Below are positions 9,669 to 63,209 of a stretch of DNA of 64,000 nt, in pieces. Source of the DNA: a virus. Its lineage: Duplodnaviria; Caudoviricetes. The stretch covers positions 1,711 to 65,710 of the IMG/VR virus record IMGVR_UViG_3300021363_000005; one strand, 5' to 3'. Numbering within the stretch: the stretch's first letter is position 1; each line of letters begins with the position of its first letter. The position numbers and the translations under genes were made by a program. The notes under the pieces were generated by a model. It did no database searches, was not told where the DNA came from, and worked only from the letters and a program-made list of their open reading frames with translations.

Positions 9669-10793
9669 ATGCCTGATCTAGCTTTCAGTCCGGACGCACC
9701 GGAGTACGGGCCCGAAGTCGCGCAAGCTCCTCCGCCCGAGTTGATGCAGTCGCCTTTTCAGAGGCTGCCGGCAGCTGCGCCGTCGCCTGTTCAAGCGCCG
9801 CCCGCGCCGCCCGCGCCGCCGACGGGACAGGGCGATCAGCTTGGCGTGCAAACCGGCACGCCGCCGCCAGCGCCGACACCGGAGCAGGTGAAACAACAGA
9901 CTGCTGCTGAAGCAGCCGACGATATGGAACAGCAAAAGGCTGCCGACCTCGAAGAGGAACAGCAGTACAAGACCTTGCGGTCTCATCACGGCAACTATGA
10001 CATTCTAAAAGACAACGTCACTGCTGATAGTCATCCAGATACCCCTAAGTTGCAGCGGGCATTGGAGCTCTATAGCAAGCTGGGCAAGGGTGACCCTGCG
10101 ATCAAGCAGTACAAACCGCTGATCGACGGTCTGAAAGCGAAAATCAATACCGAGACCAAGGCGCAAAATGACAAGGTGAACGCTGCACGCAAGGTCGAGG
10201 CGGCGCAGGCTGACGCCAAGTATGAAGATGTCAATCAGCGTGAGCGCACCTACGGAACAATCGGCACCATCGTCGACACCGTCGCTGGTGACTATGGCGA
10301 CCGCGCCAAGGATCGCGATCCCAAGGTGGCGCAGGCAAGCGATTTCACCGTCAAGACGTCGCCGCTTACCACCATGTCGATCAAGAAGCGCGACGGGACG
10401 GTATCCTATGAGCCGCTGCGCAACGCTGCGACGTCGATTGCCACGTTGAACGGTCGCATGCCTCCTGACGCTGCGGTGAACCACGTGCTGTCCATGGCGT
10501 CGCCGCTGGGTTTCGACGACAAAGGCAAGCCGCTGACCGGCGTCAACGGCAAGACCGGTGCCGGTGCGACGACCTATCAGGTGATCGGCCGCGACGTGCG
10601 CGACAACTATCTGGTCGTGACCAACGACGGTACGCACTTGCGGGTTGATCCCGATACGATGGCGCAGGTACGACAGGCCCGGCAGATGGGATGGAGGGCG
10701 GCCAAGCAGTGGCAAACTGATCAGAAGAAAGCGGCTGAGCCTGATTGGCTCACTCGTACCTATCGAAGCGTCATTCCCGGGAAGGGCTTCTGA
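9669..10793 (+). CDS. putative internal virion protein
   Basis: Long ORF whose stop overlaps the start of the giant gene (TGATG). Confidence 0.5.
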   Translation: MPDLAFSPDAPEYGPEVAQAPPPELMQSPFQRLPAAAPSPVQAPPAPPAPPTGQGDQLGVQTGTPPPAPTPEQVKQQTAAEAADDMEQQKAADLEEEQQYKTLRSHHGNYDILKDNVTADSHPDTPKLQRALELYSKLGKGDPAIKQYKPLIDGLKAKINTETKAQNDKVNAARKVEAAQADAKYEDVNQRERTYGTIGTIVDTVAGDYGDRAKDRDPKVAQASDFTVKTSPLTTMSIKKRDGTVSYEPLRNAATSIATLNGRMPPDAAVNHVLSMASPLGFDDKGKPLTGVNGKTGAGATTYQVIGRDVRDNYLVVTNDGTHLRVDPDTMAQVRQARQMGWRAAKQWQTDQKKAAEPDWLTRTYRSVIPGKGF

Positions 10794-16700: not shown

Positions 16701-19423
16701 TCAAGAGTGAGGCCGGTCGCAGCAACTTCCGCGATGTCGTGGCCCGGATCCGCCGCACGCCTGAGCTCAATCGGCTGGCCGGTCCCTACATCCCGCTCAC
16801 CCGGCGCGGCAACTGGGCGACATTTGGCCGGTTCAAGCTGGGTGAGGGCGGCGACAATGGCGAGCGTCCGCTGGCGGAGCGCGACACGCACGGTCGCGAC
16901 GTCGACGAAGGCGTACGCATGTTCGACACCCGCGAGGCGGCCGAGGCGTTTGAGCAGCGCATGCAGGATAAGTTCGGCATCAGCCAGCTCGATGGCGGCG
17001 AGTGGTTCATCGATAAGGCGACCGGCAAGCGGGCGCGCGAGTACACCGAGGAGGAACTGCGCCAGCTGCAGGACAAGACCCCCGATCTCAACAACCGGTT
17101 GCTCAGGGCCAAGGAGGTCGAGCCCGGCATCGTCGAGGAAGGGCCCAACCGCTACGAGAAAAAATTCTGGGTCAAGATGCAGCCTAAGCTGCTGGAATTT
17201 CACGACAGCCGTGGCGAGGCCGATGCCAGTGCAGCGGCGTGGCGCGCCAAGCACGGTGCCGACATCGAGGTCAGCAACGCCGAACAGGTTCATCGCGGCA
17301 GCGGCAAGGAGAACGAGAAGTACGCCAGCTCGCAGATGCAGAAGCTGATCGACCGCGTCGAGACCACCGACACCTACCGGGGGCTCAGCACCGACCAGCA
17401 GGCGGCGCTCAAGAGCGCGCTCACCTTGCAGGCGGCCAAGCTCAGTCTGCGGCGCGGCGTGCGTCAGTCGTTCAAGCCGCGCGACTACGTGGCCGGTGTC
17501 GACCCTGAAAACTTGATGCACAACTTCATGGACTACTCCGGGCAGACGGCGGGTTATCTCGCCAACACCCGGCACTATGTCGAGATGGCCGAGGCGAAGG
17601 CGTCGCTCGATAAGTTCATGGCCGACAGCCGCTACGAAAAAGACCCGGTCAGCACGCTGCACCAGCGGACCCGCGACGAGCTCTACCGGCGGTCCGACAC
17701 GCCGGCCGAGAGCAACGTCAACACGCCGTTCGACAAGGTGGTCGACGGCGTCTTGAAGATGTCGATGTTCAGCCGGCTGGCTGGCTTCTCCTATTACGTC
17801 ATCAACTCGACCGAGCCGGTGGCGCTGGGCGCGCCGATCATGATGGATCGCCACGGCCCCGGCCGGGTGGCGGCCGAGATGGCGAAATCCTACCGCATGA
17901 TCGGTCCGCTCAAGATGGCGGCGGCTGCCGGGCGCGATGCCTACCGGGCGTTCCGGGGTCGCACTGAGGAGTTCGACGCCAACGGCAACCCAACCGTCTT
18001 CACCGACTACAAGAAAGTTTTCGAGAAGTCGGTGGCTCAGCAGGCTGATCGTGCCGGTCTAGAAGATTTCATCAATCAGGTGCAGAAGGCCGGGCTGTTC
18101 GAGTCGTCGGCCAGCATCGAGTACCAGCGCATGATCAAGGGCCCGGCGGTGCCGTCGGGTACTTTCGACAAAGCCCAGAACTGGGCAAGCAACGTCTTCC
18201 AAGGGGCCAACACCGCCGTCGAAAACCTTAACCGGTTCGTCACGGGCGTGACCGCTTACCGGCTGGAACGGCAGCGGCTGGGCAACGCTGAGGATGCCCA
18301 TCAGAAGGCGGTCGATTACGCGACCGACGTGATGTACCGCACCAATGGCGACTATCGCGATTGGAACTCACCCTCGCTGCTGACCAAGGGGCCGATTGGC
18401 AGGTTGGCCGGGCAGTACAAGAAGTACCCGCAGCGCGTGCTGGCGAGCTACATCGAGGGTGCCGCTGCCTCGCTGAAACTGCTGACCAAGGAGGGCAGGA
18501 CCGAAGAGAACATGCAGAAGGCGAAGCGTCTGGTCGCCATGACGGTGGTGCAGATTGGTGCCGCTGGCGTGCTCGGCCTGCCGACCGACATTCTCAAGAT
18601 CCCGATGAACACGCTTTACCTCAGCGGTGCGACCAGCGTCACGGGCGACGACGCTGAGAACTGGTTCCGGGGCAAGATGTTGAGCCAGTTCGGCCCGATG
18701 GGGCAGGTCATCACTGATGGTCTATCGCGTCTGACGCCGGTCGATGTTGCCAGCCGCATGGGCCTGTCCGGCTCAATCATCTATGGCTCGCCGTCGTCGC
18801 GTAAACCGGCCGACGTGATGGGCGCGGCCGTGGGGGTGATGCTCGGCTCGGGCGGCACCATGGCGCGCGACATGTTGAAGGGCGTCCAGCTGCTCAGTCA
18901 GTCGGCCAAGGCCAAATTGGATGGTGCTGACGCCGAGAGTTACAAACTTCTGATGCAGGGGCTGCGCTACACCATCCCGGTGCGCGCGCTGGCCGATCTG
19001 CTCGCGGCTACCGAGGCTGACGTCACGACGTCGACGTCGGGTCGCCCGCTGCGCGCGCCGTTGACCGATAGCCAGAGTGCCATCCGGGCGCTGGGTTTCC
19101 GGCCGACCGACGTGACACTGGCTGGCGAGGCGAAGGCGCGGGTCAAAGGCGCGGCCGACCGCTACACCGCCGAGCGCAATCGCCTGATCCAAGAGTGGGT
19201 GACGTCACCGCCGGCTGACCGGCGCTCGGTGCAGAAGGAGATCGACGACTTTAATCGGGTCTACACCAAGGGATCACAGCGCATTACGCGCGACGATCAG
19301 GTGAAGGCGATTGAAACGCGTCGCAAGGCCGAGAAGGCACCGTCCGGCGAGATGGGTCTGCCGCTCAATGCACGCACGCGCGCGTTCCTGCAGGATGAAC
19401 CGACCTATGGGAGAGCACGATGA
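10793..19423 (+). CDS. giant internal virion 'large polyvalent protein' with zincin metallopeptidase-like and PLxRFG-like domains
   Basis: ~2,876 aa from ATG 10793. Zincin motif AFYQP..RIVL..VVHEHVHAAT..HEFLSE; GPYIPLTRRG resembles PLxRFG; helical C-terminal half. Confidence 0.75.
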   Translation: MQNEFTKPGFLSGIRDPTEAAPEDTNTRSWGQFGADTAIGLAKPLVGAARTVTQGARMGLDELPPEARPEWLGDAAHGPVADVDRSLGSAEKWLDDQRSARDKALDTDSPFPGPDQRSFWREPIASTVHQITPLIPMVAGAVLTGGTSLAAQAGVAATFGLLGVGSSLSQLRDASEQMPIDELRKLPQYQEFNGDEQAARNKVFKDSVDLKTEAATFIVNGATFGAFLQGIGSPAKKALAQRLKSMLIGGTEGAGIGAAQGAVSSYGEELGKVRRGEQESIDPAKVAESTESGTAFGLPMGLHHFVSPHRPGQKPSEEPPAPTSTPLDTDVKSVATQALQTDTPPPEPTMSPFGGDTGVPGPQQAPSAPLPPEFPNIERPGLPQPGDFPPSSSPGPPPPPAGPSPPIPGAGGGGGGAPPVGGAPMSTRSRTGVPGPARAPTEPLAPRFAEIERPGLPSPGDFGAEPEPAVPSSPVAAPRPAPAEAAVAAPARPAPVVAREEPAAGPTAARVAAREIPQGGGEGVTPGVTPEVRQEARAEPRRETTITPGAETAIAPVTQRAEHAPVTLGETLSEEAQAHMARAREQAETAQNERNAKTVAARTGRTMERTGKVKTGVERALEVALKAWKASKEKTAEGWQTLRRQAINVEAGRVAAGLRAKGYLNQIGERPVTPGGVAREVERIRTRGQPRKAPAADTNEVLTPEEVSFANRLDELHRRITPDMPQLQYRATIRPMLAEARRLDAARHENGQPAIFERALPKPPGIARSLEHQFNDHAHRLELLRHLSPDEFANSEVVRSTLQKMADINEKRVPQRAIMRPTEPEIDTVSGQLVRREQPPEPTGFRPQPHTEYRPLPTPSWVSEKLAQAHTQTAPSIIEHQPYAEAVASLAGRQYPRLPAQLPTGTAEVRRMRSEATAAGQRHDVGTVYPQGAATPGRGKERPLTSAQFEREQEAHRVKTAAGTPHGEELRREAGHAQRELTPTEARELAAAKLAEEREKGTERREHLGEIPKEEDLNTLVDQALGKKEGAAATQTTRSKHTQMREIIIEHSINSVLKKHFGAELENLRSMMDRLQIGLPPIKPAELAALEAQGVTGGRKSQAIRAGKPVAPRELVSRPKRGSALTGAALDQAVVKRIMEIAGEHVPKTLGKEQAAALKVDPARFGLRLEAEEKPRGTRESFKALREEHESALIDWQNKVFDQITAGYELKPVLEEIIATAKRITAEQRQQRGITGQSIKTWIPNGRDARTADGRIFKKYNAGHAEEKATHFNMLADIMNADEQIRLAQAAAPTVDAFDHMRAPDVQRVIGQLIPELGKLGSDWRLYEGGMAKAINEERRAKSEEVTERMKGVRPAEGGDEETRAEIPETAPSAEEQMLAAEPTFETEGDRRARENRNKREWQDMIAAQRPSTQVSGARVVGTRAKGAFEKIPKTEELPPGEGRKLSGAELEEAKQRLLANRRNRPTDGPPPETAGEYRAEVQGAREALATDDPQHPLISDHEPAAASLDRAKDIIKRGEAGDVSSFITPEFIDKLSTVNAGVRVLHAPVEVVAGERGEGQAFYQPDKDRIVLSNNVSSGDYVKNVVHEHVHAATEHLLDSDAAFRSEVEDLRQRAEAHAKQAGVTNQRLLYGLRDPHEFLSESQSNPEFRAMLGRASAPSRGVIQGAKNVINALYRSIRDAWRRVVGEKDGDTALDVLFRDTSSVLGRTDKLVAKTLDRLAMEGRQPGGTAEGRRYSPLTDKVAATASRVGKDAWSAVAQSPKFDIGMSLHSTMDLARRGVKDFQGHALKVAQVMARKATERGRIIKEQDQPKLLRTAKWLNGLNKDMRIKVEKFLTDETMHGAHADVALNDPKNKHISLFEPFNEAGPKPWALRDAQVHRMHEGMRERYNELTQVPGFVENRAALHKFFADRETEIRHEVTKALTEHLGILPASADTPRLKAAAIEVIQKHILNEKMDVGEKQRLEAIKSEAGRSNFRDVVARIRRTPELNRLAGPYIPLTRRGNWATFGRFKLGEGGDNGERPLAERDTHGRDVDEGVRMFDTREAAEAFEQRMQDKFGISQLDGGEWFIDKATGKRAREYTEEELRQLQDKTPDLNNRLLRAKEVEPGIVEEGPNRYEKKFWVKMQPKLLEFHDSRGEADASAAAWRAKHGADIEVSNAEQVHRGSGKENEKYASSQMQKLIDRVETTDTYRGLSTDQQAALKSALTLQAAKLSLRRGVRQSFKPRDYVAGVDPENLMHNFMDYSGQTAGYLANTRHYVEMAEAKASLDKFMADSRYEKDPVSTLHQRTRDELYRRSDTPAESNVNTPFDKVVDGVLKMSMFSRLAGFSYYVINSTEPVALGAPIMMDRHGPGRVAAEMAKSYRMIGPLKMAAAAGRDAYRAFRGRTEEFDANGNPTVFTDYKKVFEKSVAQQADRAGLEDFINQVQKAGLFESSASIEYQRMIKGPAVPSGTFDKAQNWASNVFQGANTAVENLNRFVTGVTAYRLERQRLGNAEDAHQKAVDYATDVMYRTNGDYRDWNSPSLLTKGPIGRLAGQYKKYPQRVLASYIEGAAASLKLLTKEGRTEENMQKAKRLVAMTVVQIGAAGVLGLPTDILKIPMNTLYLSGATSVTGDDAENWFRGKMLSQFGPMGQVITDGLSRLTPVDVASRMGLSGSIIYGSPSSRKPADVMGAAVGVMLGSGGTMARDMLKGVQLLSQSAKAKLDGADAESYKLLMQGLRYTIPVRALADLLAATEADVTTSTSGRPLRAPLTDSQSAIRALGFRPTDVTLAGEAKARVKGAADRYTAERNRLIQEWVTSPPADRRSVQKEIDDFNRVYTKGSQRITRDDQVKAIETRRKAEKAPSGEMGLPLNARTRAFLQDEPTYGRAR

Positions 19424-29981: not shown

Positions 29982-30718
29982 AGGTGACCCTTTCCCCAAT
30001 ACTCGCAGCTGGTCACACCGCAGTGCTTTTTGCACAGACCGGACGGGCGCGGCGGAAAGTCGTTGTTGCGCACCGCCTTCTGCAGGCCGCCGGCGAGGTC
30101 GTAAATCTGCGGCAGGAACTCCGCCATTTCGCGTCGCGTCACTATAAAATCTGTAGCAACACCTTCGTTCAGGTAGATGTATTTGTTGTTCAGCGTGTGG
30201 ATGGTGGGGAAGTGCAGGAAGACCAGCAGGGCGGTGAGCTTGAGCTGGAAGTTGGGCGGCAGCAGTTCGTAGCGTGGGTCCTTCTCGGCTCCGGTCTTCC
30301 AGTCGATGCTGCGCCCGAGCGGTGCATCGAGCACCAGCACGTCGGCTTGCGCTCGCAGCCATACCTTTTCTTTGCGCGAAAAATACTCGCAGGGTTTCAG
30401 CTCGTAAGTGCAGGCGAGGCGGTGCTCGACGAAAACCTGCTGGGTGGGCGGACCTTGCTTCATCGTCGTCGCCCAGTCGGCGTAGCGGGCGTACTCGGGG
30501 GGCAGCGGGGTGCCCTTGGCGATGAAGTCGGCCATCGCCTTGTGGACCCTAAACCCCTCTTTCATCTGCGGGCTCTCGGGTTCCTTGATCGTCTTGGCAA
30601 TATCGTAGTGATAGAACTTGCGGGCGCAGTTGGTGAACTTGTCGAGGGCGGAGAAGCTCCAATGACGACGCTCGACGACCGGGTTGCCGTGAACGTCAGT
30701 GCGGTTGAGGCTGTCCAT
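29978..30718 (-). CDS. PD-(D/E)XK (Cas4/RecB-like) exonuclease
   Basis: WSFSALDKFTNC, G..VH, E..L, ADVL..IDWKTG, QL, C-terminal C..C..C cluster. Confidence 0.85.
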   Translation of the reverse strand: MDSLNRTDVHGNPVVERRHWSFSALDKFTNCARKFYHYDIAKTIKEPESPQMKEGFRVHKAMADFIAKGTPLPPEYARYADWATTMKQGPPTQQVFVEHRLACTYELKPCEYFSRKEKVWLRAQADVLVLDAPLGRSIDWKTGAEKDPRYELLPPNFQLKLTALLVFLHFPTIHTLNNKYIYLNEGVATDFIVTRREMAEFLPQIYDLAGGLQKAVRNNDFPPRPSGLCKKHCGVTSCEYWGKGHL

Positions 30719-36771: not shown

Positions 36772-38307
36772 TCAGTCCATAAGATGCGAGCGAATGCGCT
36801 CGACGACGTTCTCAATATCATCGACCGTGCTCTCGATATCACGCACGCGCTTGACCATCGAATGGTTGTCGGGGTGGCTCGCCACCACGTCACCCAGTGC
36901 ACTGGCCAGCCGCTCGGCCGGGGTCGTCTCCTCGGGCTGCTCACCGTCGAGCAGTTTGAGGTGATGTTCCATGCCCTTGGCCGACCGCACGATGTCGCTG
37001 TCGGTCAGAAAGAACGCCGCTCCCGGCGCACGACCGATGGCGTAGAGTTTGGACCTCTCCACCACCTCGCGGATCACCGCCGGGATGCGCCCCGCCAACG
37101 CTTCCCCCGCACCCGACAGATCCTCGTCGGGCTTGATCAGCTTGCGGCCATAAACCCGCAAGAGCTTCTGCACAGCGCCGGCATCGGGTGCCCCGATATG
37201 CAGCACGGCGTCGAGCCGACCGGGCCGCAGCATGGCCTGATTGATCTCACCCGCCTTGTTCGAGGTCAGCACGACCATGATCTCCGAACCCTTGGAGATG
37301 ATACCGTCGACCTTGTTCAGGATGTCGTCCATCTGCGGCGTCCGCTCGCCTGCCATCTCGCGGTCGATGTCCTCGACGAACACGACGCAAGGTTGGTAGT
37401 TGGTCGCGAACTGCAGGGCCGACTCCAATGCCGAGACCCGACCGACCGTGATGAAGGTCCAGCCGTTGTCCTCGCATTTCTTGGCCGTCACCGTGGCCGC
37501 CAGCGTCTTGCCGGTACCGTAGGGACCTTCGAGCAGGACGCCGCGCTTGAGCGGAACGTCATGCTCGCGGCACCATGCGGTCTGCTCAATCGGTGTCCAC
37601 AGGTTGGTGACCACCTGATCCATCAGATCCTCGGAGAACACCAGCTCGTGCTCCCTGACTTTCTTCAGGTTCATGAAGGTCGGCGGCTCCATCAGGTTGA
37701 TGGTGCCCTTGTCGAGCGACAGCTTGAGCGCGTGGCCTTTGTAGATCGACCGCTCGCGCACGATCTGGCGGGTCAGCTCGGCCAGCCCGTGGATCATCTC
37801 GATGTGCTTGCGCTTGGTCTGGCCTTGAATGCAGAACCTGACCTGCCCTTTCTTCTCCTCGGTGCCGGTCATCAGTTGACCGTCGACACCGGGCAAACGG
37901 AAGCCACCCCAGAAGATCGAGGCAGTCTCGTTGATCCCGGTCTCGATGCTCATCATGGTCGGCGCGTTCCTGCGCCACCATGGTCCGGTTGGTGTCGGAC
38001 TGGCCCAACCGTAGGTCTCCCGCATCGCCTGCATGAAGGCGACGCAGCCATCCCATGGGTGAGCGTCGATCACCTCGTGAACATTGATGACTTCCTCCTC
38101 GGCCTGCTCCAGCCGAGCCAGCCACTCGCGGGCCTCCAGCAGGGTCATGTTGCGCGGATCGGCCGGCAGGATGATCTTGCTGCCGCTGTATTCGATGGAT
38201 GCATCGATGTTGGCGAACGCCTTGTCGGTCGGTTTCTTCTCACCCGCACGGTTGACCAAGTCCTGCAGAAAAGCGACCAATGCGCTGCGTTCCATTTCGA
38301 AAGCCAT
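36772..38307 (-). CDS. AAA+ ATPase (classic AAA clade)
   Basis: RGVLLEGPYGTGKT, VFVEDID, LTSN, AMLRPGRLD; start may be at 38295. Confidence 0.9.
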   Translation of the reverse strand: MAFEMERSALVAFLQDLVNRAGEKKPTDKAFANIDASIEYSGSKIILPADPRNMTLLEAREWLARLEQAEEEVINVHEVIDAHPWDGCVAFMQAMRETYGWASPTPTGPWWRRNAPTMMSIETGINETASIFWGGFRLPGVDGQLMTGTEEKKGQVRFCIQGQTKRKHIEMIHGLAELTRQIVRERSIYKGHALKLSLDKGTINLMEPPTFMNLKKVREHELVFSEDLMDQVVTNLWTPIEQTAWCREHDVPLKRGVLLEGPYGTGKTLAATVTAKKCEDNGWTFITVGRVSALESALQFATNYQPCVVFVEDIDREMAGERTPQMDDILNKVDGIISKGSEIMVVLTSNKAGEINQAMLRPGRLDAVLHIGAPDAGAVQKLLRVYGRKLIKPDEDLSGAGEALAGRIPAVIREVVERSKLYAIGRAPGAAFFLTDSDIVRSAKGMEHHLKLLDGEQPEETTPAERLASALGDVVASHPDNHSMVKRVRDIESTVDDIENVVERIRSHLMD

Positions 38308-44687: not shown

Positions 44688-47600
44688 CTACCGGGTGCTA
44701 TTTCTTTTTGACATTTTGTCAATACGCGCTTGTCGCGCCACGACAATCTCGTAGGCTTGGTGCGAACCCAAGCGATGGCACATCTTGACCCACCGCTTAC
44801 GTTCGCTCTCGTCGTCCGGCGCACCGGTCAGTGCGCGCCAGCGGGCGAAGTCGTATTCGAGTTCCAGCGCCCACATCATCAACGTCTCCTCACGCGCACC
44901 TGCTTGGTCCGCTCGCGACCATGCAGGGTGTAGCGCAGGATGGCAGTGAAGATGTAGATGCCGTGGTGCCAGCGCATGACGACGAAGTTCATGCGTGTTG
45001 GCCACGGTCTGCCCGTCAGGGTCATGGTGGTGGCCCCCTTACTTTGCGCCGCCATGCCTCACGACGAGCGAACTTGATGCGTTGCTTCTCGCGGAACTCG
45101 TCGAGCGACAGCATCTCCTGCCGCCACCACGCAATCAGTCGTTTGATCAGGAACATGATCAACCTCCCGTCTTGATGAACGGCGCGTCGTGGTTCTTCTG
45201 GGTGTACTCCTGCCCGCGTCCCTCGCCCAAGCCAGCACCGCTGCGCTCGAAGCACGGCTTGCACAAGGTGGCCCATGAGCCACCGCGTGAGACGCGCGCA
45301 TCGTAGAGTTTATGGGTGATCTTCTTCAGGCAGACGTTGCACATCCTGTCGCCCGTCCACGTCTTTGGTATCCGTGCCATCTTCATTGTCCCTTCGTTGC
45401 TTTCATCTGAACGTCCCCATGCGCGCTCGCTCGGAACGCTGCGCCATCGCCTTGACCTGATCGAGCTCGCGTTGCAAGTGGATAACTTCATCGCACAACG
45501 CGATAACGGTTTGCCGCAGAACGTCGCCGGTCGGCCCATCCTTGCGGATGGTAGCGAGCAGCATCTGCAGTCGTCGATTGTCTTTCATGGTTGCCTCTCC
45601 CGAAGGGCGCGCGCTACCGCACTTGAAACCCAAGCGTTCATCGACGTGCCGTCGGCTTCAGCGGCAGCTTTGAGAAGTTTCATGAGGCGCTTGGACAATC
45701 TAATGTGGAGCTGTGGTCTTGACATGGTGTCAGTCATTCGTGAAACCCCCCGAGGAACTTGCGCAGTTCCTCGCGCTGCTGGGGATCTTCTATGCCGCGC
45801 AGCCACTGACACTCGGCGCAGATGTCCTGATCGTTGGCGGCTGGGTGCAACGCCCAGCTCACGACATGTATGCCGCAGTCGCGGCAGTCGAACTCGCGGG
45901 GTTCGCTCATCGCTTGATCCACCATGCTGATGGTCCCTGCTCCTCGACAAAGGCCGAGCAGGCGTAGAAGAAAATCAGGATGCACAGCACGAGCCCGATC
46001 AGCTTGGCTGCGGACCACAGGAAATCAGTGAACTCTTCCATGTCAGGGCTCCTCCTTGGGATGTGGCCTGCCGTAGAGCGGCAGCTCGACGATGGGGTAC
46101 CAGAAGCCATTGTCAGGCAGGGGATGGTCATCGAGCCGGCGCTTCTCGATGTCCTTGAAAATGGTGGCGCGCGCCGGATTTCTGGTCCAGCGATGGGCCA
46201 CCATGGTGGTGCCGAGCATGTCGAGCTCGCATTCGAGATACATCGGCATGTGCGCAATGTCGTTAAGAGTTTCCCCTTTAACGATCATATACATCGGCTG
46301 GTCGTAGCCCGTGAGGTGCTGCAACCAGCGGCGAACCGACAACAGGATTTTGTTGAATGGCATGTCTTCTCCCCTCATTCGATGAACACCCGATAGGCTT
46401 CGACATTGAGGCGCAGGCGCGCCGCGATGATGGTGTGTTGCAGCTCCATGGCGTGGACGATGACTTCGAAATCATCGTGACTGAGATTGGCGCGGATCAA
46501 CACCTGCGCCATCGCCGGTACGTCGGCGATGGCGTTACGCAACTCACACAACTTGAAGAAGTCCATGGTGATGCGCAGCGCCAAGCCTTTGCTGATTTCC
46601 CATTCATCCTTTGGTGGTTCTTCGGTCATGGATCCCTCGTGCATTGGTAGTATTGAAAGAGCAGCAAGCAGCCCACCCAGAACGACACGCCGACGCCGTA
46701 GAAGACAGCGACGTCGTGCAGCAGTGCGCCATAGAGTTCTTCGTTCATCATGGCTTATGACCTATTCTTGGGTGGATGGGCCTCGGCCTGAAGCACAGCA
46801 TTCCAGAAGGAAGCCCACTTGGAGTGTCCGAAGCCCCGGAAGATGTGATAGCTCATGACGATCCATCTCATTACAGGGCTCAAAAAACCGGCAGGCGGGG
46901 TCGCATCGCCGAGACGATGCTGTCCCACTGGTCACGGGTCAGCCAGATCCCGGCAGAGATATGGCCGTCCTTGTCGCTCACGGTGAGGGCGACGCCGTCG
47001 TAGAGTACCCAGACGTCGACGTCGCAATCCTTGTTGGCGATCAGCGGTAGGGGTTGGGCACGCAGGTTCATTGGTCATTCCTCCTGAAAGACATGCCGGG
47101 GGGTTTGAGGTTGGGCTCGCACTTGCAACGGAACTGCTTCTCGCCGCGACTGCAGTAGTGCGCGGCCTCGAGCTGGCACAGCATCTCGGTCTCGAAGCCG
47201 TACTGGATGAAGCCTTGCGGCGGCAGCAGCCCGGTCATCAGCACGATCAGTGCCCATGTTGGTTCTGACATGATGTCAATTCTCCTCGGGGTTCTCCGGA
47301 TCACCGAAGACGAAGCGGCCCGTCATCGATCCGTCGATGGGGTCGGTCGTCTGCACATCGTCGCTCAGCTTGGTGTGCCGCCACGTCTCGCGTGAGCGGT
47401 TGGCACCCAGCACTTTTAGGATCTCGATCATGGTCGACTGCTGCATCATGGTGTTGGTCTCGCGGTCGTAGTGCAGCATCTGGAACATCATCACCTCGTC
47501 GCGGTCGGGGTGGTCGCCGAGGTTGGGATACTTCTCGACGTTGCGATCAAGCACGCCCTTGTTTTTAGTGCGCAGCGCCCACGCCTCGGAGCAGAACACC

Positions 47601-48325: not shown

Positions 48326-49075
48326 TTAACCTCCGGAGTTAGCAATCGGAGGCGTGATCTTGACCTTGGCGAGTTTCTCTTTCTTGTTGTCAGCCTTGGC
48401 CTGTTTGGCCTTATCTTTGGCCTCGGCCTTCTGCTTCTTGGTGCCGCCGAGTTCCTTGACCATTTTCTCGAGGATGTCGCAGCACTTGTAGATCTCGGGG
48501 TAGTCGTAGCCTTCGTTGAGTTTGAGGATGCGCTCGCGCTCTGCCCAGAACTTCTCGGCAAGGTCTTTCTTCTTAACCTTGGTCGAGTGGTCGGCCATGG
48601 TGCCGTCGATGTCCTTGTCGGCAAGGGCATGCTTGGGCTTGTTGTTCTGGGCACGGGCAAAGCCGAGCAGCAGCTCCCAGATGCGGCCTGACTTGACGGT
48701 GCCGTTCGAGCGCAGGTGCTTCATGCGCTCGACGGCGCGATGCAGCACGGCAGGTCCGTCGTAGTTGGGATTACGGCCGAGGATGATGAAATGCTTGATG
48801 TCGGAGGCACGCTGCTTGAATTGCTGGGTTTCCCTGATGTCGTTGCCGCCGACGTCTAAAAGCTCCTCGCCGGCACCCTCGATGATCTCGGACCATGCCC
48901 GTTTGTTGTCGTCCTCGTCGAACAGGCCCTCCTTGGCTTTGCGGGCGATCAGCTCGGCGGCGCGCAGGCGTGCCGTCTTGCCTTTGCCCTCGGAGCGGCC
49001 GATCTCGCGCAGTTCAGCAAACGCTGCCGCTTTGGCAGCGTCGATGTTGGACGCAGTTGGTGTATTGTCGGTCAT
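48326..49075 (-). CDS. 249-aa helical hypothetical protein (paralog of 52250-53002)
   Basis: AAACAGGAGAG RBS; motif A upstream and motif B at the stop. Confidence 0.7.
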   Translation of the reverse strand: MTDNTPTASNIDAAKAAAFAELREIGRSEGKGKTARLRAAELIARKAKEGLFDEDDNKRAWSEIIEGAGEELLDVGGNDIRETQQFKQRASDIKHFIILGRNPNYDGPAVLHRAVERMKHLRSNGTVKSGRIWELLLGFARAQNNKPKHALADKDIDGTMADHSTKVKKKDLAEKFWAERERILKLNEGYDYPEIYKCCDILEKMVKELGGTKKQKAEAKDKAKQAKADNKKEKLAKVKITPPIANSGG

Positions 49076-50256: not shown

Positions 50257-51371
50257 TCATTTGTTACGCACGAAGCGCAGCACGGCGACCGCGACGCAGC
50301 AGACCAGCACGAAGATCAGGAACTGCCTGACCTCGGGACTGGCCAGCAACTCGGCCATCAATGCACCCTATCGGCATCGTCGGGAAACATCCGACCATGC
50401 ATCTGCTGCTCGACCAGCAGCAGACCCTGATCGCTGTCGATCAACTTGTAACCCCGGTTGGTGACGAACAGGCGCGCCGTCTCGGCGAACATCCACGAGC
50501 CGGCAAGCAGCATGAAGTGGCCCGATGGTGATTGCGCCCAGACGCAGGTACGGTCGCCGTGCGGTGCCAAGAACGCACTGGGAAAAGCTGGGAAGGGAAT
50601 GACCTTTGACATGATGTCAACTCCTTTCCTGCTCGATCAGAATGTAGGCGATGTTGAAGGCCGGCACCGAATAGAGTTCGGCTTGGATACGGAGGTCTTC
50701 GGGGATGGCCTCGATGACTTCGAGAACAGCCCGCAGTGCCTGCACGAGCTGGCGATTGCGCGTGACTAATAGATCTTCGTCATGCTTGCTCATGGGTCAC
50801 CGTGGTGTGGTGTTGCTGCGATTGATCGTGGCGACGGGCGGTGCCTTAGGCGGATCGATGCGCTTCAGGCCATAGCGCACGATGGCCGCCTCGGCACCCT
50901 CGCGGGTGAGATAGGCGCTGACCAGTCGCGCGACGACACCGGACGGCGTGGTGATGAAGACCCAGAACTTACCGTCGTACTTGTCGGCATAGGCCGATGG
51001 TGTGAACGTCATTGAAGCCTCCTGTTTCATGGTGTCGTGGAACTGATGACAATTACCGCAGTACATAAACCGGATGTCCTGCGGGTGGTAGCTGGTGCGC
51101 CCACATTGTGGGCACGTGATGGATGGTTGTTTCGTCATTATTCCTCGCCAAACGGTGGTGGATCATGACGATGTTCAATAAGAAATTCCCATATGTCGTC
51201 GATGGGCACGGCGCAGCGGTTGGCAACAGCATACACCAAACCCATGATCAAAGCGCTGTAACCAACTGCGTCGTTGATGCCCTCCAAGGCTTCAGGCAGC
51301 GGCCGCACGCGCGCAAAAAACTTTTCGTCATGCATCGTAACCGCCAGCACAATGCGCTCAGGTTCGGCCAT
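50257..51371 (-). other. first early genes downstream of the main leftward promoter (e.g. 50257-50358 TM peptide, 50358-50612, 50797-51012, 51138-51371)
   Basis: Coupled small ORFs with RBSs. Confidence 0.5.
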
Positions 51372-51413
51372 TCGGTGTCCTTTCGTGGTTTGAAAGCATT
51401 GACACGATGTCAA

Positions 51414-51442
51414 ATCATAACTCCGGGGGTTAATGATGTCAA
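51414..51442 (-). promoter_or_regulatory. near-consensus sigma70 early promoter; motif B in the spacer and motif A over the start site
   Basis: TTGACA (51442-51437) - 17 bp - TATGAT (51419-51414). Confidence 0.8.
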
Positions 51443-51449
51443 GTGGAAA

Positions 51450-52120
51450 ACGTACATTAGAATGTTTCTAATGTACATTCGTGTTGTGCGGCAAGCTCGA
51501 TTGCCCCTGACCGGCACGATTTACACGGCACATGCGGTCGGCAAATAGTTTTCATTTGATGATAAGCGAGCGGCCAAGTGATGAGCAGCTCATGTTAAAT
51601 AGAAAAATCGCTTATCATGAACCCTTTAATATCAACGGGTTAGGGGATGATAAGGATGATAAGGAGGGTTTTGGTGCACATAGCCCCAACTATTCTTCAA
51701 CGGGGAGTTTAAGTGACTACTATTAGTTACTTAAACTCCCCGTGAGATCACATGTCGGCTGTATACGTCGTTTATCCTCCTTATCTTCCTTATCATTACA
51801 TTGGTAAGTTCCGGAGGAACTTCCCATTAACCCAAGCTATCCCGTAAGTGCCGGATAATATGAGACTATTAGACACAATCATATATCGGAACACACAGTT
51901 TTCCTTATCATGATGATAAGGAGGATGATAAGGATACAATGGAAAGTTTGGCTTATCTGCCGCCCTTGCTGGCCCTAACCATGTCAAGTAGAAACTTACT
52001 ATTAAACAAATTCCTACTTACCATGTCAAGTAGAAACTTACTATTAAACAAATTCCTACTTACCATGTCAAGTAGAAACTTTCCACTTGACATTGTGTTA
52101 AGTGGTAACTCCCGGAGTTA
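51450..52120. other. putative replication origin / non-coding control region
   Basis: AT-rich and gene-free; GATAAG repeats in both orientations; 20-bp stem at 51700-51743; 11-bp inverted repeat at 51452-51476. Confidence 0.55.
51978..52081. repeat. 42-bp tandem repeat, about 2.5 copies
   Basis: ACCATGTCAAGTAGAAACTTACTATTAAACAAATTCCTACTT at 51978 and 52020, partial copy at 52062. Confidence 0.95.
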
Positions 52121-52207
52121 ACATCGCGCCGCGCAGCCCGCGCCTGCCGTGCCCTTGACGCGCATTACACGGCACATGTGCCGCGCGGCGCGGACCCCGG
52201 ACGTGCG

Positions 52208-52237
52208 AAAACCCGCGACCCTTGCGGGTCGCGGGTT
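52208..52237 (-). terminator. intrinsic terminator of 52250-53002
   Basis: CCCGCGACCC-GCAA-GGGTCGCGGG followed by TTTT on the - strand. Confidence 0.75.
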
Positions 52238-52249
52238 CGCGGTAAGTTT

Positions 52250-53002
52250 TCAGTTCACGCTCTGAGACTGGGCGCTGCCTTCGAGCTGCGCCTTAAGCTG
52301 CGCCATCTCGTCGGCCGCAGACAGGCCGGTCTCGCCGTCGGCGACTTCGCACGCCTTGACGAACGCCTCGCACGCCTGAACAACGGCGAGCATTGCGATA
52401 CGCTGGCGCGGCTTCGCCTTGATGGCTTCGAGCGCCACCTTGTCCGACTTGGCGACGCGTTCGTCCGACGTTGTCGAAAGCCACCGCTTGGCTAGCGTCA
52501 AGGCAGGGTTCTCGTCTGCCTTGGAAACCGGATTGAGGATGGCGTCAAGCTCGACGTCGTTCGGCTTCGTGGTCGGATGCTTGTCCATCACCTTGCGGAC
52601 CTTGGCCCCGCGAACGGTATAGGACTGCTTGTCCAACTTGGTCGCCTTCTCGACGATGTCGCTCATATCGTAGGCAGCGAACCGCCCCGCGTCTGCGAAC
52701 GCACCGAAAGCGGATGCCCAAGTCTTAACCGAATTTTCGGAAAGCTCCTTGCGCATGCTGCCTTCGCCCGACCGGAAAGGCGTATTGAACGCGTCGAAAA
52801 TCTTCGCCGTATCAATGTCGCCGTTCACCTTGTTCTGCCGATGGGCAACGCCAACGGCGAACATGAAAGCGGCGAACCGCTCGAATACGGACAGGTCCGT
52901 AAGATTGCCCGTGCCGATCTCGGCCGCTGCCTTGATGATGGCCGCCTCTGATTTCAGGCTTTTGGCGTCGTACTTGCTGATATCCAACATTTTCGTCTCC
53001 AC
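52250..53002 (-). CDS. ~250-aa helical hypothetical protein, monocistronic (paralog of 48326-49075)
   Basis: GGAG RBS favours ATG at 52990; two motif A copies upstream; own terminator. Confidence 0.7.
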   Translation of the reverse strand: METKMLDISKYDAKSLKSEAAIIKAAAEIGTGNLTDLSVFERFAAFMFAVGVAHRQNKVNGDIDTAKIFDAFNTPFRSGEGSMRKELSENSVKTWASAFGAFADAGRFAAYDMSDIVEKATKLDKQSYTVRGAKVRKVMDKHPTTKPNDVELDAILNPVSKADENPALTLAKRWLSTTSDERVAKSDKVALEAIKAKPRQRIAMLAVVQACEAFVKACEVADGETGLSAADEMAQLKAQLEGSAQSQSVN

Positions 53003-53181
53003 ATGTTATTGACTTGATGTCAATGGGAGCGGCGCTCCCTACCCTACGTCAAGTGTAATCAAAAGTATTGACTTGATGTCAACGGCGAGCCGCCACCCCG
53101 GAGATGGACACGGCCGGGGTGGGGTAGTGTCGGCTTAGGGGCTTCACAAATCTGGGTACGTGTTTTTTCGGTTCTTTCCTC

Positions 53182-53210
53182 TTGACATCGCTAACCGCCG
53201 GGGTTAAGCT
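53182..53210 (+). promoter_or_regulatory. sigma70-like rightward promoter with motif B in the spacer
   Basis: TTGACA (53182-53187) - 17 bp - TAAGCT (53205-53210). Confidence 0.7.
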
Positions 53211-53292
53211 TCTCCCACCCGCGAAAAAGCGCCATTGACATTATGTCAAGAGGTACTTATCTGCTTCACGTGGCATATGGAGATGTTTGTAA

Positions 53293-53772
53293 ATGGCATA
53301 CGATACCCAGCTCAAGATGGATCCCACGCCGATGCCGATAAAGCCTGCGGTGCTGCTCCTGCTGCATCGTCGTCGCAAGATGGCGTTCGTCAGCTACACC
53401 TCGAACGCACGCGGTCGCGCGGCTGTCTTGGCTTCCGCTATCCGCCACCGCGACACCGTCGAGCGCGCCCATCTGCGCGACCTGCCCGAGGGCGACATCA
53501 GGGACTTCGCCTTGCTGGCGACCAGCGTCGGCTTGGAGCCGCGCAAGGCCAACAAGACGGTCGAACGCCTGCAGGCCAAAATGGTGCGCGACGGTTACAA
53601 GCTGTTCGGCAGCCCCCGCTCTGCCATCCCGCTGGTGACGCTCAACGGCAAGCGCATGTCGTTGGTCGAGGCGATGCTGGAAGCCAAGTGCAAGACCAAC
53701 TATCAGACCTGCTATCGCCGGGTGCAGCGCGGCTGGCCAGTCAAGGCTGCTCTCGACTTGGAGCCGAGATAG
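53293..53772 (+). CDS. homing-endonuclease-related protein with C-terminal DNA-binding motif
   Basis: C-terminal TLNGKRMSLVEA..NYQTCYRRVQRGW resembles the C-terminus of the HNH at 35189; N-terminus may be a degenerate GIY-YIG. Confidence 0.5.
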   Translation: MAYDTQLKMDPTPMPIKPAVLLLLHRRRKMAFVSYTSNARGRAAVLASAIRHRDTVERAHLRDLPEGDIRDFALLATSVGLEPRKANKTVERLQAKMVRDGYKLFGSPRSAIPLVTLNGKRMSLVEAMLEAKCKTNYQTCYRRVQRGWPVKAALDLEPR

Positions 53773-53829
53773 CGATACGCCGAAGCGTGTCGCTTTCGCT
53801 CGATCTCGAACCCAAATAGGAGCCATACA

Positions 53830-54066
53830 ATGGGAACTAAACTTTTACCCGCCGAGTTCGACTGCTATCAGGCTGCCGAGCCCGATGAGCCGATGTTCGT
53901 CCTGCTGGCCCGCGACCAGACCGCGCCTGCGCTGGTCCGCGCGTGGGCCTACCAGCGTTCGACTGCCATCGACAACGGCATGCGTCCGCCCGAGGATCGC
54001 GCGCAGGTCACCGAGGCGTTGCAGTGCGCCGACGCCATGGTGAAGTGGCGCGAGGAAAACCGATGA
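53830..54066 (+). CDS. small conserved phage protein (DEPMFVLLARD motif)
   Basis: AGGAG RBS; AEPDEPMFVLLARD..APALVRAWA..EA..CADAM..WR. Confidence 0.65.
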   Translation: MGTKLLPAEFDCYQAAEPDEPMFVLLARDQTAPALVRAWAYQRSTAIDNGMRPPEDRAQVTEALQCADAMVKWREENR

Positions 54067-54106
54067 CGCGCGTAAATGCGCGCGTCATCCAGCGCCCGGT
54101 GCTGGG

Positions 54107-55560
54107 ATGATCCGCATCACCGCCCCCCACTTCGTTGCCGGTGTCGTCATCACCTGCGGTCGGGTCGGCCGGCGTGCCCGCATCCTCGACTACATGATCG
54201 GCTGGACCGCCCAGCAGGTCATCGATTATGTCGAGAAGAAACACTGGCGTTACGAGCTGCTGCCATGACCGCCCCCAGCCCCCCTACGCGCGACGAAACC
54301 CTCGCTCTCCTGCTGCGCGCCCGTGACCTGCTCGATGCGGCCGAGGTTCCGAGCGACGGCCGATTGATCTGGCCGTTCGACTATGAAATGCTCTCTGTTC
54401 CGCACGAACAGGAGAGTGCCATGACAGACCCCGCGCCCGGCTATCCCGTCGCTGCCAACCCGGTCCCCGCCGTTCCCGCCGTGCAGGCCGTCCCGCTCAC
54501 CCCGGCCGAGCAGGAGCAGGTCGACATGCTCTACGACGAACTCAAGCCGGCGGCCACCGAGAGTGCGCGCGCCTACGTGCTGGCGCGCACCCCGGCCAGC
54601 CTGCAGGTCGCCATGAACGAGAAGATCGACGCCGACTGGCCGGCACCCGAGCCGCCCACCGAGGATGTGCTGGCCGCCCGACGCGAGGACGCCATGTCGG
54701 GTTTCCGCACCGCTTCGGTGACGCTGTCGCAAACTGCACCGGTCGCCGACCCGCCGGTCGGCCAGACCTACCCGGCGCAGTTCCAGCCGCTGCGCTGAAA
54801 CCATGACGACGCCGGCCCAAGAGACCACCGAGCTGTTCGCCACCTTGCAGCCGTTGGCGCTTGCCGACTACGTGACCTACATCATGTCGCGCACCCGCGC
54901 CGACTTGCAGGCCCTGATGGCTCCACTGGCGGCTGGCGACCCAATGCCTGCCCCGCCGCTGCCGGCCAATCAGGTGATCGTCAGTTCCGGTGATGCCATC
55001 CCGGTCAAGGACGGCAGCAAGACGGTCAACGCGCCCGCCACCGTGGCGGGCGGCGTGCTCACCGGCGCTCAATTGGGTTCGACCACGACCATGGTGGCCA
55101 ACGCGGCTGCCGTGGTCGTCCACAATCTCGCGGATGCCAATCAGGCGGGCTCGCCCGGCACCGCCACGGTGGCGGCCGGTGTGCTCAGCAAGGTCAATCT
55201 TACCGTGTGATCCCGCAGATGCAGACTCTACTTTGTAGGATCACACTGGTATGAACTACGCGCTCGTGCTCTCGGCGCTCGAGAAGCACGCGCGCATGGC
55301 CCAAGCTGCTGTGAACTTTGCGCGGGAAAAGGGTAGAGGAAAGCTTTTCAGCGAGGCGATGATGGTGCTGACGGAGGCCGAGCTGGCGCTACTCCATGTC
55401 CAGAAAGAACAACAAGCTGCGCAGCGTGATGCACTTCACCGCTGACTTCCTGACCGTGCTCGCCTGTTTCAGCCTGCTCTTGCTGGCGCTTTGTCTCGAC
55501 ATCATAATCACGGTCGTGCGTCGTCGACGCGGCCGTAGCATCAAGGTGACGCCCCTTTAA
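54107..55560 (+). other. cluster of small hypothetical genes (54107-54268, 54265/54421-54798, 54803-55210, 55251-55445, 55429-55560)
   Basis: Consecutive coupled ORFs on the + strand. Confidence 0.5.
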
Positions 55561-62132: not shown

Positions 62133-63146
62133 ATGGCCGTTTATCCTCTCGCTGGTTCGGGCACCGTCCCGCCGATTTTCCCCACCGGTTCGCTTACCCC
62201 CGCTCCCGCTTACTCGCATACCGTCATCCCAGAGATCTGGTCAGGCAAGCTGATCGAGAAGTTTTACGCCTCGACCGTGCTGGCTGCGATCTCCAACACC
62301 GCCTACGAAGGCGAGATCAAAAATCAGGGCGACACGGTGCATATCCGCACCAAGCCCACCATCACCATCAATGACTATCTGGCCGACGGCGGCATCGTGG
62401 TGGAGCGCCCGAGCTCCAACATCGTCGACCTGCTGATCAACAAGGGCAAATACTTCGCCACCATCCTCGACGACGTTATGGAGACGCAGTCCGATCTCAA
62501 CCTGCTCGGCATGTGGAGCGACGACGCCGCTCAGCAGATGAAGATCAAGATCGACGCTGACGTCCTGCTCGGTCTGCTGGGCGGAGCCGACGCGGCCAAC
62601 CGGGGCGCGACCGCCGGCAAGATTTCCGCCAGCCTCAACCTCGGTATCACCGGTACCCCGGTTGCCATTTCCCGCACCACCGGCACCCCGGCTTCCTCGG
62701 TGTCGATCCTCGACATGCTGCTGCGCATGGGACAGGCGCTCGACGAGCAGAACGTCCCCGAGGAGGGACGCTGGTGCGTCATCCCGTCGTGGGCATCGAC
62801 CAAGATCAAGCAGTCCGAATTGCGGCAGGCGTATCTGTCGGGCGACAGCGTCTCGATGCTGCGCAACGGCCGGCTCGGTCAAGTCGACCGCTTCACCATC
62901 TACGTGTCCAACCTTCTGCCCAAGGGTCCAGTGACCGGTCCTCCGGTGCTGGCAGCGGGCGAGTGGGTGTTCTACGCAGGCCACGCGCACGGCCTCACCT
63001 TCGCCAGCCAAGTCTCCAAGGTCGAGACGCTGCGTTCTGAGTTCACCTTCGGCCAGATCCTGCGCGGCTTGCAGGTCTACGGCTACAAGGTGGTCGATCC
63101 GATTGCGATCTCGCAGGCGATTGTCACCCCGGCAGTGGGCGACTAA
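62133..63146 (+). CDS. major capsid protein
   Basis: IPEIWSGKL..FY..TV...ISNT.YEGEIK..GDTVHI, GR.G.VDRF.IYVSN, RGLQVYG.KV; AGGAG RBS. Confidence 0.9.
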   Translation: MAVYPLAGSGTVPPIFPTGSLTPAPAYSHTVIPEIWSGKLIEKFYASTVLAAISNTAYEGEIKNQGDTVHIRTKPTITINDYLADGGIVVERPSSNIVDLLINKGKYFATILDDVMETQSDLNLLGMWSDDAAQQMKIKIDADVLLGLLGGADAANRGATAGKISASLNLGITGTPVAISRTTGTPASSVSILDMLLRMGQALDEQNVPEEGRWCVIPSWASTKIKQSELRQAYLSGDSVSMLRNGRLGQVDRFTIYVSNLLPKGPVTGPPVLAAGEWVFYAGHAHGLTFASQVSKVETLRSEFTFGQILRGLQVYGYKVVDPIAISQAIVTPAVGD

Positions 63147-63209
63147 CCCCCGGAGTTAGACCGCTTGACATAATGTCAAGCGGTCAACTTCCTCTTAACG
63201 GGGGGCGCG

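Follow-up and report, generated by a model that had tools for sequence, protein, structure and literature searches.

Which signals govern the divergent region at 51399-53249 in the genome of an uncultured, soil-derived tailed phage, and what could read them? The region lies in a window of 64,000 nucleotides, bases 1711-65710 of the 65,710-bp virus record IMGVR_UViG_3300021363_000005 (g0 when genomes are compared); the ends of the record overlap, the genome measures ~65.7 kb and nearly all of it is inside the window. We conclude that 51399-53249 is the early control region of this phage and probably also contains its replication origin. Two 15-bp dyad-symmetric motifs, A (TTGACAnnnTGTCAA) and B (TAACYCCSGGRGTTA), overlap or adjoin its two outward-facing promoters, and we give about an even chance to the reading that both are operators for two putative phage DNA-binding proteins, which would shut off early transcription and would use the same sites again at gene junctions throughout the genome.

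The genes are arranged in arms around this region. The leftward genes (51371-22863) encode, among other products, a primase-helicase, an SNF2 helicase, a family A DNA polymerase, a PD-(D/E)XK nuclease and an AAA ATPase, and the short rightward arm extends over 53293-55445. The terminase genes are read leftward (57584-55617); the structural genes, read rightward, run from 57659 over the ends of the record as far as 22694. The nearest isolates were the Rhizobium phages RHph_TM29, TM27A/B and TM3_14A, with the same synteny and a capsid protein 67.7% identical; no similarity to isolated phages was found at the DNA level.

Promoters P_L and P_R and the motifs that overlap them

The promoter, A and B coordinates proposed for the control region in an earlier interpretation made from the letters alone (the sequence-only reading) were all present as given:

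51442-51414, minus strand: promoter P_L, with TTGACA (51442-51437), the 17-bp spacer TCATTAACCCCCGGAGT and TATGAT (51419-51414)
51418-51432: motif B (TAACTCCGGGGGTTA) in the P_L spacer, 0 mismatches, starting at +10 relative to the first -35 base
51399-51413: motif A abutting the P_L -10, over the predicted start; the A half of an A + 4 bp + B composite
53182-53210, plus strand: promoter P_R, with TTGACA (53182-53187), the 17-bp spacer TCGCTAACCGCCGGGGT and TAAGCT (53205-53210)
53192-53206: motif B in the P_R spacer, 1 mismatch, 4 bp after the -35 and giving the TA of the -10
53235-53249: motif A in the P_R leader, starting 24 bp after the -10 (~+19 to +33); not conserved in the related genome g1

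Both P_L and P_R look like sigma-70-type promoters. P_L, which was the top site in the promoter scan, matched the consensus at 11 of 12 positions (-35, 6/6; -10, 5/6), and P_R, in a separate scan, at 9 of 12, with a complete -35 (6/6). The number of promoter-like sites in 50500-54000 was unremarkable (6, with 2.3 +/- 1.7 expected). At P_L, as at P_R, B starts 4 bp after the -35 and contributes the TA of the -10.

The geometry of both promoters was maintained in related genomes, among them g1 (G001; 61.6 kb), which is collinear with g0 and whose genes are ~70-78% identical to those of g0. The P_L arrangement (TTGACA, 17 bp and a -10-like hexamer) was found in the four genomes examined (g0, g1, G002 and G004), the hexamer of G004, TATACC, being without the final T. 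TTGACA with a -10-like hexamer at 17 bp was likewise present at P_R in all six sequences having this upstream region, g0 and five relatives (TAAGCT, TATATT, TACCTT, TACCAT, TATGTA and TATAAT); a sixth relative, L017, was left out of this comparison, having a different gene upstream. The P_R of g1 has lost 5 bp between its -35 and B, and another -10 compensates for the loss, as expected of a real promoter under selection.

The placement of the motifs on these promoters was less constant. At the P_L of g1, A forms the -35 and the spacer, with TAAGCT as the -10 and B 12 bp upstream; in G002, A is again the -35 plus spacer, followed by CATACT and directly after it by B. G004 reads TTGACA-tcag-B-TATACC, in the register of g0, and the same register was found at the P_L of L018. 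The arrangement with A as -35 plus spacer was also seen at g1 21052 and g1 15920. At P_R, B stands nearer to the -35 in g1, by 5 bp (starting at +5), directly follows the -10 in L014 and L016, lies 34 bp upstream in L018 and is absent in L019. The proposal that B sits in the same register in both promoters is thus correct for the P_L and P_R of g0, and extends to the P_L of G004 and L018, but it is not a rule, given the shifts in g1, L014, L016 and L018. Because this register varies, though B mostly overlaps the core promoter, B is not itself part of the promoter. The P_L transcript of g0 could not hold a whole A hairpin, because its predicted start, ~7 nt after the -10, lies inside A; with the start inside A in g0 and A upstream of the start in g1 and G002, A would act only as DNA at these promoters.

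The composites announced by the sequence-only reading were also present. A + 4 bp + B occurs at 51399/51418 and at 52087/52106 (with 1 mismatch in the latter A), and B + 6 bp + A at 63144/63165, after the capsid gene. The 37-nt stretch of P_L holding the first composite is 89% identical to the composite of g1, and the 4-bp spacing was found with differing linkers (ATCA, GTGG, GTCG and GATG) twice in g0 and in g1 and L005. Since linkers and non-motif positions differ, the copies are not recent, and the recurrent spacing suggests that A and B may cooperate.

Both motifs were strongly over-represented. Allowing up to 2 mismatches, there were 31 sites for A, with 1.51 expected, and 16 for B, with 0.13 expected; none of 100 shuffles reached either number. 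At up to 1 mismatch the whole genome had 30 A and 12 B sites. A was densest in the control region, where 1.85 kb hold 5 sites; the left arm has 15 over 28.7 kb. Of the 30 A sites, 18 were not fully within called coding regions, which cover 87.6% of the genome. A minority of the A and B sites, with both palindrome classes present, overlapped recognisable promoters. A as a general promoter was rejected: a -10 was found at 16-18 bp for only a subset of the sites, the best -10-like hexamers of the others standing, by reading, at 14, 15 or 21 bp. One A and one B site (23336 and 25082) lie inside the primase-helicase gene, at positions kept in g1 (7738 and 9523); they may be held there by the coding sequence (DFD..SM and LT(S/P)GV) or by the function of the sites.

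Palindromes of the related genomes

The clade is abundant in soil, the 159-aa product of the first rightward gene alone accounting for 78 protein clusters. Searching with the alignment of this protein gave 27 IMG/VR loci, six of them at 64-66% identity. Among 23 loci with a homolog of it, A (up to 1 mismatch) was found in 3 and B (up to 2 mismatches) in 4. The A + 4 bp + B composite, used as a search pattern, retrieved only g1 in viral contigs and nothing in metagenome contigs, and the same was true of the 246-aa protein encoded between the promoters when it served as query. The genome g1 has 29 A and 4 B sites.

Close relatives without A have a dominant palindrome of their own, which also occupies the positions before the gene of the 246-aa family. 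It was TTAACA-N3-TGTTAA in G004 (15 sites), CTTATA-N4-TATAAG in G003 (15 sites) and CGAACT-N4-AGTTCG in G005 (13 sites in 26 kb, one of them just after the -10 of a promoter). In these three genomes (L043-L051) the dominant palindrome is 15-16 bp long with 13-15 sites, the next commonest having at most 4 copies. B sites numbered 30 in G004, 16 in G002, 12 in g0 and 4 in G006, and there were none in G003 and G005; reversed-pattern controls gave 0. The specificity of the A type thus switches independently and B is all-or-none, as two trans-acting sequence-specific factors would produce.

These observations are consistent with the following mechanism. The host sigma-70 RNA polymerase would start at the two outward-facing promoters, P_L driving the ~28-kb leftward replication arm and P_R the short rightward arm. 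A and B would be the 15-bp dyad operators of two different putative phage-encoded proteins, presumably dimers, with B in the spacer and A over the start at P_L, and B in the spacer and A in the leader at P_R. Occupancy of these operators would exclude or block the polymerase, so that early products shut off or throttle both arms, as a negative feedback or a temporal switch, and the same operators at dozens of gene junctions and a few internal promoters would serve as roadblocks or as operators of those promoters. We infer in this scheme the transcription start sites, the binding of proteins to A and B, the phage origin of these proteins and the repression. The two-operator switch on both arms that had been proposed earlier is supported in part, by the conserved sigma-70 geometry, by the way A and B overlap parts of the core promoter in the relatives and by the recurrent 4-bp spacing. 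It did not stand as a property special to this region, because A and B occur genome-wide. Nor are the 1.85 kb a single switch, since they also hold a gene, a terminator, iterons and repeats.

Other elements of the control region and of the genome

Between and around the promoters, and after the capsid gene, we found the following features:

51452-51476: perfect 11-3-11 palindrome GTACATTAGAA-TGT-TTCTAATGTAC just upstream of P_L (-12.1 kcal/mol, z -5.4)
51556-51937: AT-rich block (GC 0.41, against ~0.6 for the genome), where GATGATAAG(G) iterons of either orientation surround a hairpin
51700-51743: hairpin with 20-bp arms inside the AT-rich block (-33.8 kcal/mol, z -8.6)
51975-52100: 42-bp tandem repeat in ~2.5 copies, with a half-A (CATGTCAAGTAGAAAC) per copy, running into the next full A
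52087-52120: second of the two A + 4 bp + B composites, bordering the AT-rich block on the right; position kept in g1, linker different
52127-52190: conserved non-coding block containing ATTACACGGCACATG, which is also at 51521; 81% over 93 nt to g1
52207-52240, minus strand: intrinsic terminator of the 246-aa gene (-30.8 kcal/mol, z -5.7), then UUUUCGC
52250-52990, minus strand: gene of the 246-aa protein (family 'gp247', hypervariable)
53009-53023 and 53068-53082: two A sites upstream of the 246-aa gene, flanking a small palindrome (53025-53039) that covaries with g1
53100-53157: two conserved boxes upstream of P_R, GGAGATGGACACGG and TTAGGGGCTTCACAAATCTGGGT
53293-53772, plus strand: gene of the 159-aa protein, first of the rightward arm; identity still 64-66% in relatives without A and B
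63144-63191, plus strand: post-capsid B + 6 bp + A, a terminator-like hairpin with A at its apex (-27.6 kcal/mol, z -6.3)

The AT-rich iteron block is a candidate replication origin, judging from its composition and repeats. Iteron words of the GATGATAAG type were confined to 51558-51934 within the genome, and both the iterons and the protein of the 246-aa family differed in every relative. Homologs of the 246-aa protein at the same position were 20-46% identical, and terminator hairpins were found at the equivalent place in g1, L014 and L018; a genome-specific palindrome occupies, in the relatives, the two A positions before the gene. No Pfam, PHROG or PDB sequence match was obtained for the 246-aa protein, which may be a partner of the origin and its iterons or a regulator.

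The model of the 159-aa protein (predicted local distance difference test, pLDDT, 83) consists of a weak GIY-YIG-like N-terminal domain and a C-terminal helical domain, the best row being UvrC 1yd6 (E 0.36). Boxes GAGATGGACA and TTAGGnnCTTCnnAAATCTGGG at 53100-53157 were recognisable in g0 and five relatives, even in those without A or B, and may be the target of this conserved protein or of a host factor.

The arms of the 11-3-11 palindrome were identical in g1 (~30362-30386, beside the A + 4 bp + B composite), with one copy in each of the two genomes; it was not found in the other 12 sequences searched, save for one 1-mismatch match in G005. PMC1698941 gives TTTAGAA-N3-TTCTAAA as the consensus of the iron-control element (ICE) of Irr, and the core of the palindrome, TTAGAA-N3-TTCTAA, fits 12 of the 14 positions specified there. 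The palindrome may be a site for a host iron regulator within the phage control region.

The stem of the post-capsid hairpin is 12-14 bp long and contains G-U pairs in the sense strand. Relatives of this element were seen at ~1590-1650 of L005 and 140-200 of L009, and G003 has its own palindrome at that place.

In the genome as a whole, six-frame searches for integrase, resolvase, ParB and HTH_3 gave no matches to PF00589, PF00239, PF02195 and PF01381, with controls that responded, absence of matches not being proof of absence. No close TerL relative or prophage was found in GTDB species genomes and no tRNAs were found. The search for a single-subunit RNA polymerase gave no PF00940 match, which is weak evidence, the controls of that search also being blank. 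Because lysogeny genes and an RNA polymerase gave no matches, the phage looks virulent and dependent on the host polymerase. N4-like hairpin promoters served by a phage RNA polymerase were considered and rejected, as the 2892-aa protein is DarB-like at its C-terminus only. This protein, encoded at 10745-19423 in the structural arm, had no PDB sequence match; only its C-terminal ~700 aa resemble known sequences, namely a PHROG without assigned function and proteins that bear the annotation DarB-like antirestriction protein or Snf2 helicase. The AAA ATPase at 36772-38307 (minus strand) corresponds to phrog_10440 (E 6e-126), with relatives 40-45% identical in Pollock, Pylas and KPP25-type phages; G002 was its sole carrier among the five related genomes compared.

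Alternative readings and known systems

Several results weigh against operators read by dedicated DNA-binding proteins. The proteins themselves did not come forward: six-frame searches found no HTH_3, RHH_1, sigma-70 region 4 or ParB, the 33 window proteins compared with Pfam included no known DNA-binding regulator family, and the two candidates that were folded, the 249-aa product of 48326-49075 and the 159-aa protein, show no DNA-binding fold. The -10 of P_R is weak (3/6), which is why P_R was missing from the first promoter scan, and half of A equals the -35 consensus. By the crude coding calls made here, 12 of the 30 A sites are inside coding regions. Many A and B sites are directly at ribosome-binding sites or start codons, which fits a role at the RNA level too: A usually adjoins the Shine-Dalgarno sequence or contains the start codon (20287, 47265 and 50606 are examples), and B has GGAG, with an open reading frame (ORF) starting 0-8 nt after it in 22/44 cases in G004, 13/20 in G002 and 5/10 in g1. 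At the post-capsid element, the flanks differ among g0, g1 and L005 yet stay paired, which indicates an RNA or structural role there.

Beyond these negative results, Pfam matches above their own cut-offs were restricted to replication, packaging and domain-of-unknown-function (DUF) families, and the 20 of these 33 proteins that were also compared with PHROGs gave no regulator family. The 159-aa protein is not the determinant of specificity, because its conservation is the same whether or not a genome has A and B. Nor is A tracked by the 246-aa family: its members in the A-bearing L014 and L016 are 26-29% identical to that of g0, against 27% in L018, which has another palindrome. The 249-aa protein, present in all genomes compared, was the only one whose identity tracks the A group (50-51% in A-bearing genomes, 26-38% in others), a pattern based on 5 genomes; the palindrome belonging to each genome was found within ~40 nt of the start of the 249-aa gene in 5 of 6 cases. 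Its model is all-alpha (pLDDT 81), with no Foldseek match at E <= 0.001 and, with VIA-align, only helical-hairpin matches (Z <= 7.2); a profile comparison with the 246-aa family was not significant (probability 5.7%). As a candidate regulator the 249-aa protein is a lead only. A zinc-ribbon-like ORF (CxxC...CxxC; 45734-46018, minus strand) was shared by the B-rich genomes g0, G002 and G004 and missing from g1, G003 and G005, where B sites are few or lacking. The pattern came from phyletic profiling of all ORFs, whose output was noisy, and makes the product a weak lead as a candidate B-binding factor.

Could A and B act mainly in RNA, as translation-initiation elements (targets of a RegA-like or coat-protein-like repressor, or devices of translational coupling), their presence at promoters being secondary? 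The position of most intergenic A sites directly 5' of a Shine-Dalgarno sequence or holding a start codon speaks for this, as do the GGAG of B with its nearby ORF starts, about twice as frequent as at random positions (~0.24-0.26) in G004 and G002, and the post-capsid hairpin, topped by A, with G-U pairs and flanks that covary in g1 and L005. Yet B alone as RNA does not fold (-0.5 and 0 kcal/mol), and A alone gives only a weak hairpin (-3.4 kcal/mol) whose arms, by reading, show one-sided changes across the sites and no compensatory pairs. At g0 P_L, g0 P_R and g1 P_R, B is in the untranscribed spacer, and at the P_L of g1 and G002 A is the -35 and spacer. The B sites of the control region have no start codon downstream, and in g0 the link of B to ORF starts is unclear (5/14, against 0.25). 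The overlap with ribosome-binding sites may also reflect a 15-bp site forced into an intergenic gap of 15-20 bp. Rfam searches matched just two microRNA models, far under their gathering scores. We consider a mainly RNA-level role unlikely.

The motifs might instead need no dedicated regulators, A being a palindromic -35 module (ccac/cctc-TTGACAt) and B a cassette of stop codon and Shine-Dalgarno sequence, both spread by recombination, with the promoters as copies of one module. P_L and P_R do make up an inverted repeat of 37 nt with 81% complementarity, an 18-nt string (ATGTCAAGAGGAAAGAAC) was found by reading to be common to 29604 and the region upstream of P_R, and strong promoters throughout the clade have an extended -35 (ttccac/ttcctc-TTGACA), also where the genome carries another palindrome. 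We nevertheless regard this as quite improbable: a -35 or a ribosome-binding site needs no strict dyad symmetry, the palindromes of the relatives are unlike a -35 and still occupy the same positions as A, B is all-or-none between genomes, and the composites vary in linker and in the bases outside the motifs. It is also quite improbable, in our judgement, that the region is primarily an origin, with A or B or both bound by a replication or partition protein, for which the 246-aa family would be the candidate; it would recognise direct repeats at the origin and inverted ones at its own promoter, in the manner of the Rep proteins of iteron plasmids. That idea draws on the AT-rich block with iterons found nowhere else in the genome, on the three half-A of the phased 42-bp tandem repeats and the two full A before the 246-aa gene, and on the different iterons and highly diverged protein at this position in every relative. 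Thirty A sites over 64 kb, however, fit poorly with an origin-only role, the 246-aa family does not follow A, the main iterons (GATGATAAGG) bear no relation to either motif, and no ParB was found.

Operators for two phage proteins remain our preferred reading, and a wider version of it can be drawn, which we put forward as speculation that is unlikely to hold. Each phage of the clade would have its own fast-diverging network of 13-30 operators, read by a regulator of unrecognised fold, without lysogeny genes. As the half-site in the present phage is the host -35, the protein would compete with sigma at early promoters and mark gene junctions; the divergence would amount to an 'immunity' or exclusion between co-infecting lytic relatives, and B would be a co-repressor family, separately gained or lost, acting at a fixed spacing.

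If A and B are operators, the clade is a natural series of related genomes, with several changes of operator specificity against unchanged promoters. It would be useful for studying how regulator-operator pairs diversify and for finding DNA-binding proteins of new folds, it could supply orthogonal repressor/promoter parts for alphaproteobacteria, and with it stoperator-like control of whole genomes would reach beyond temperate actinobacteriophages. Should the motifs be only promoter and ribosome-binding-site cassettes, this is an ordinary early-region annotation.

Iteron-type origins with an autoregulated initiator are known from plasmid Rep proteins and from lambda O/ori. Like them, the region is AT-rich, with genome-specific direct repeats and a fast-evolving neighbour gene preceded by inverted repeats; unlike in them, the A inverted repeats are not halves of the main iterons and are spread over the genome. 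Multi-copy motifs before start codons or at early promoters are also known as the start-associated sequences of Cluster K mycobacteriophages and the inverted repeats bound by the phiC31 repressor, which differ from A and B in motif sequence and host.

The Cluster A mycobacteriophages (L5, Bxb1) have, according to PMC6550527 and PMC9283540, 20-30 operator/stoperator sites genome-wide, a few of them in the early lytic promoter. Stoperators are described there as mostly promoter-free, lying in short intergenic gaps, with a consensus distinct between related phages, asymmetric, oriented with transcription and bound by the monomeric immunity repressor of temperate phages. Here too, 30 A and 12 B sites are scattered, some in early promoters, and the consensus differs between relatives; unlike the Cluster A sites, ours are dyad-symmetric and belong to two independent families, and no match to an integrase, resolvase, ParB or immunity repressor was found. 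In the IncP-1 plasmids (RK2/RP4), many promoters have operators of two palindromic classes, for KorA and KorB, in them or close by, and adjacent operators lead to cooperation of the repressors (PMC2665229, PMC2680271, PMC4889941 and PMC11790492). The likeness lies in two palindromic motif classes scattered over a mobile genome; the difference is that KorB belongs to the ParB family, of which none was detected here, and that the system is of a plasmid and not of a phage. The phage falls outside Cluster A-type control because its sites are symmetric and no lysogeny gene was matched, and outside the KorA/KorB system because no ParB-family regulator was matched. Its arrangement is of a known type, here in a new phage group, and is a variant of the stoperator or KorA/KorB-type networks.

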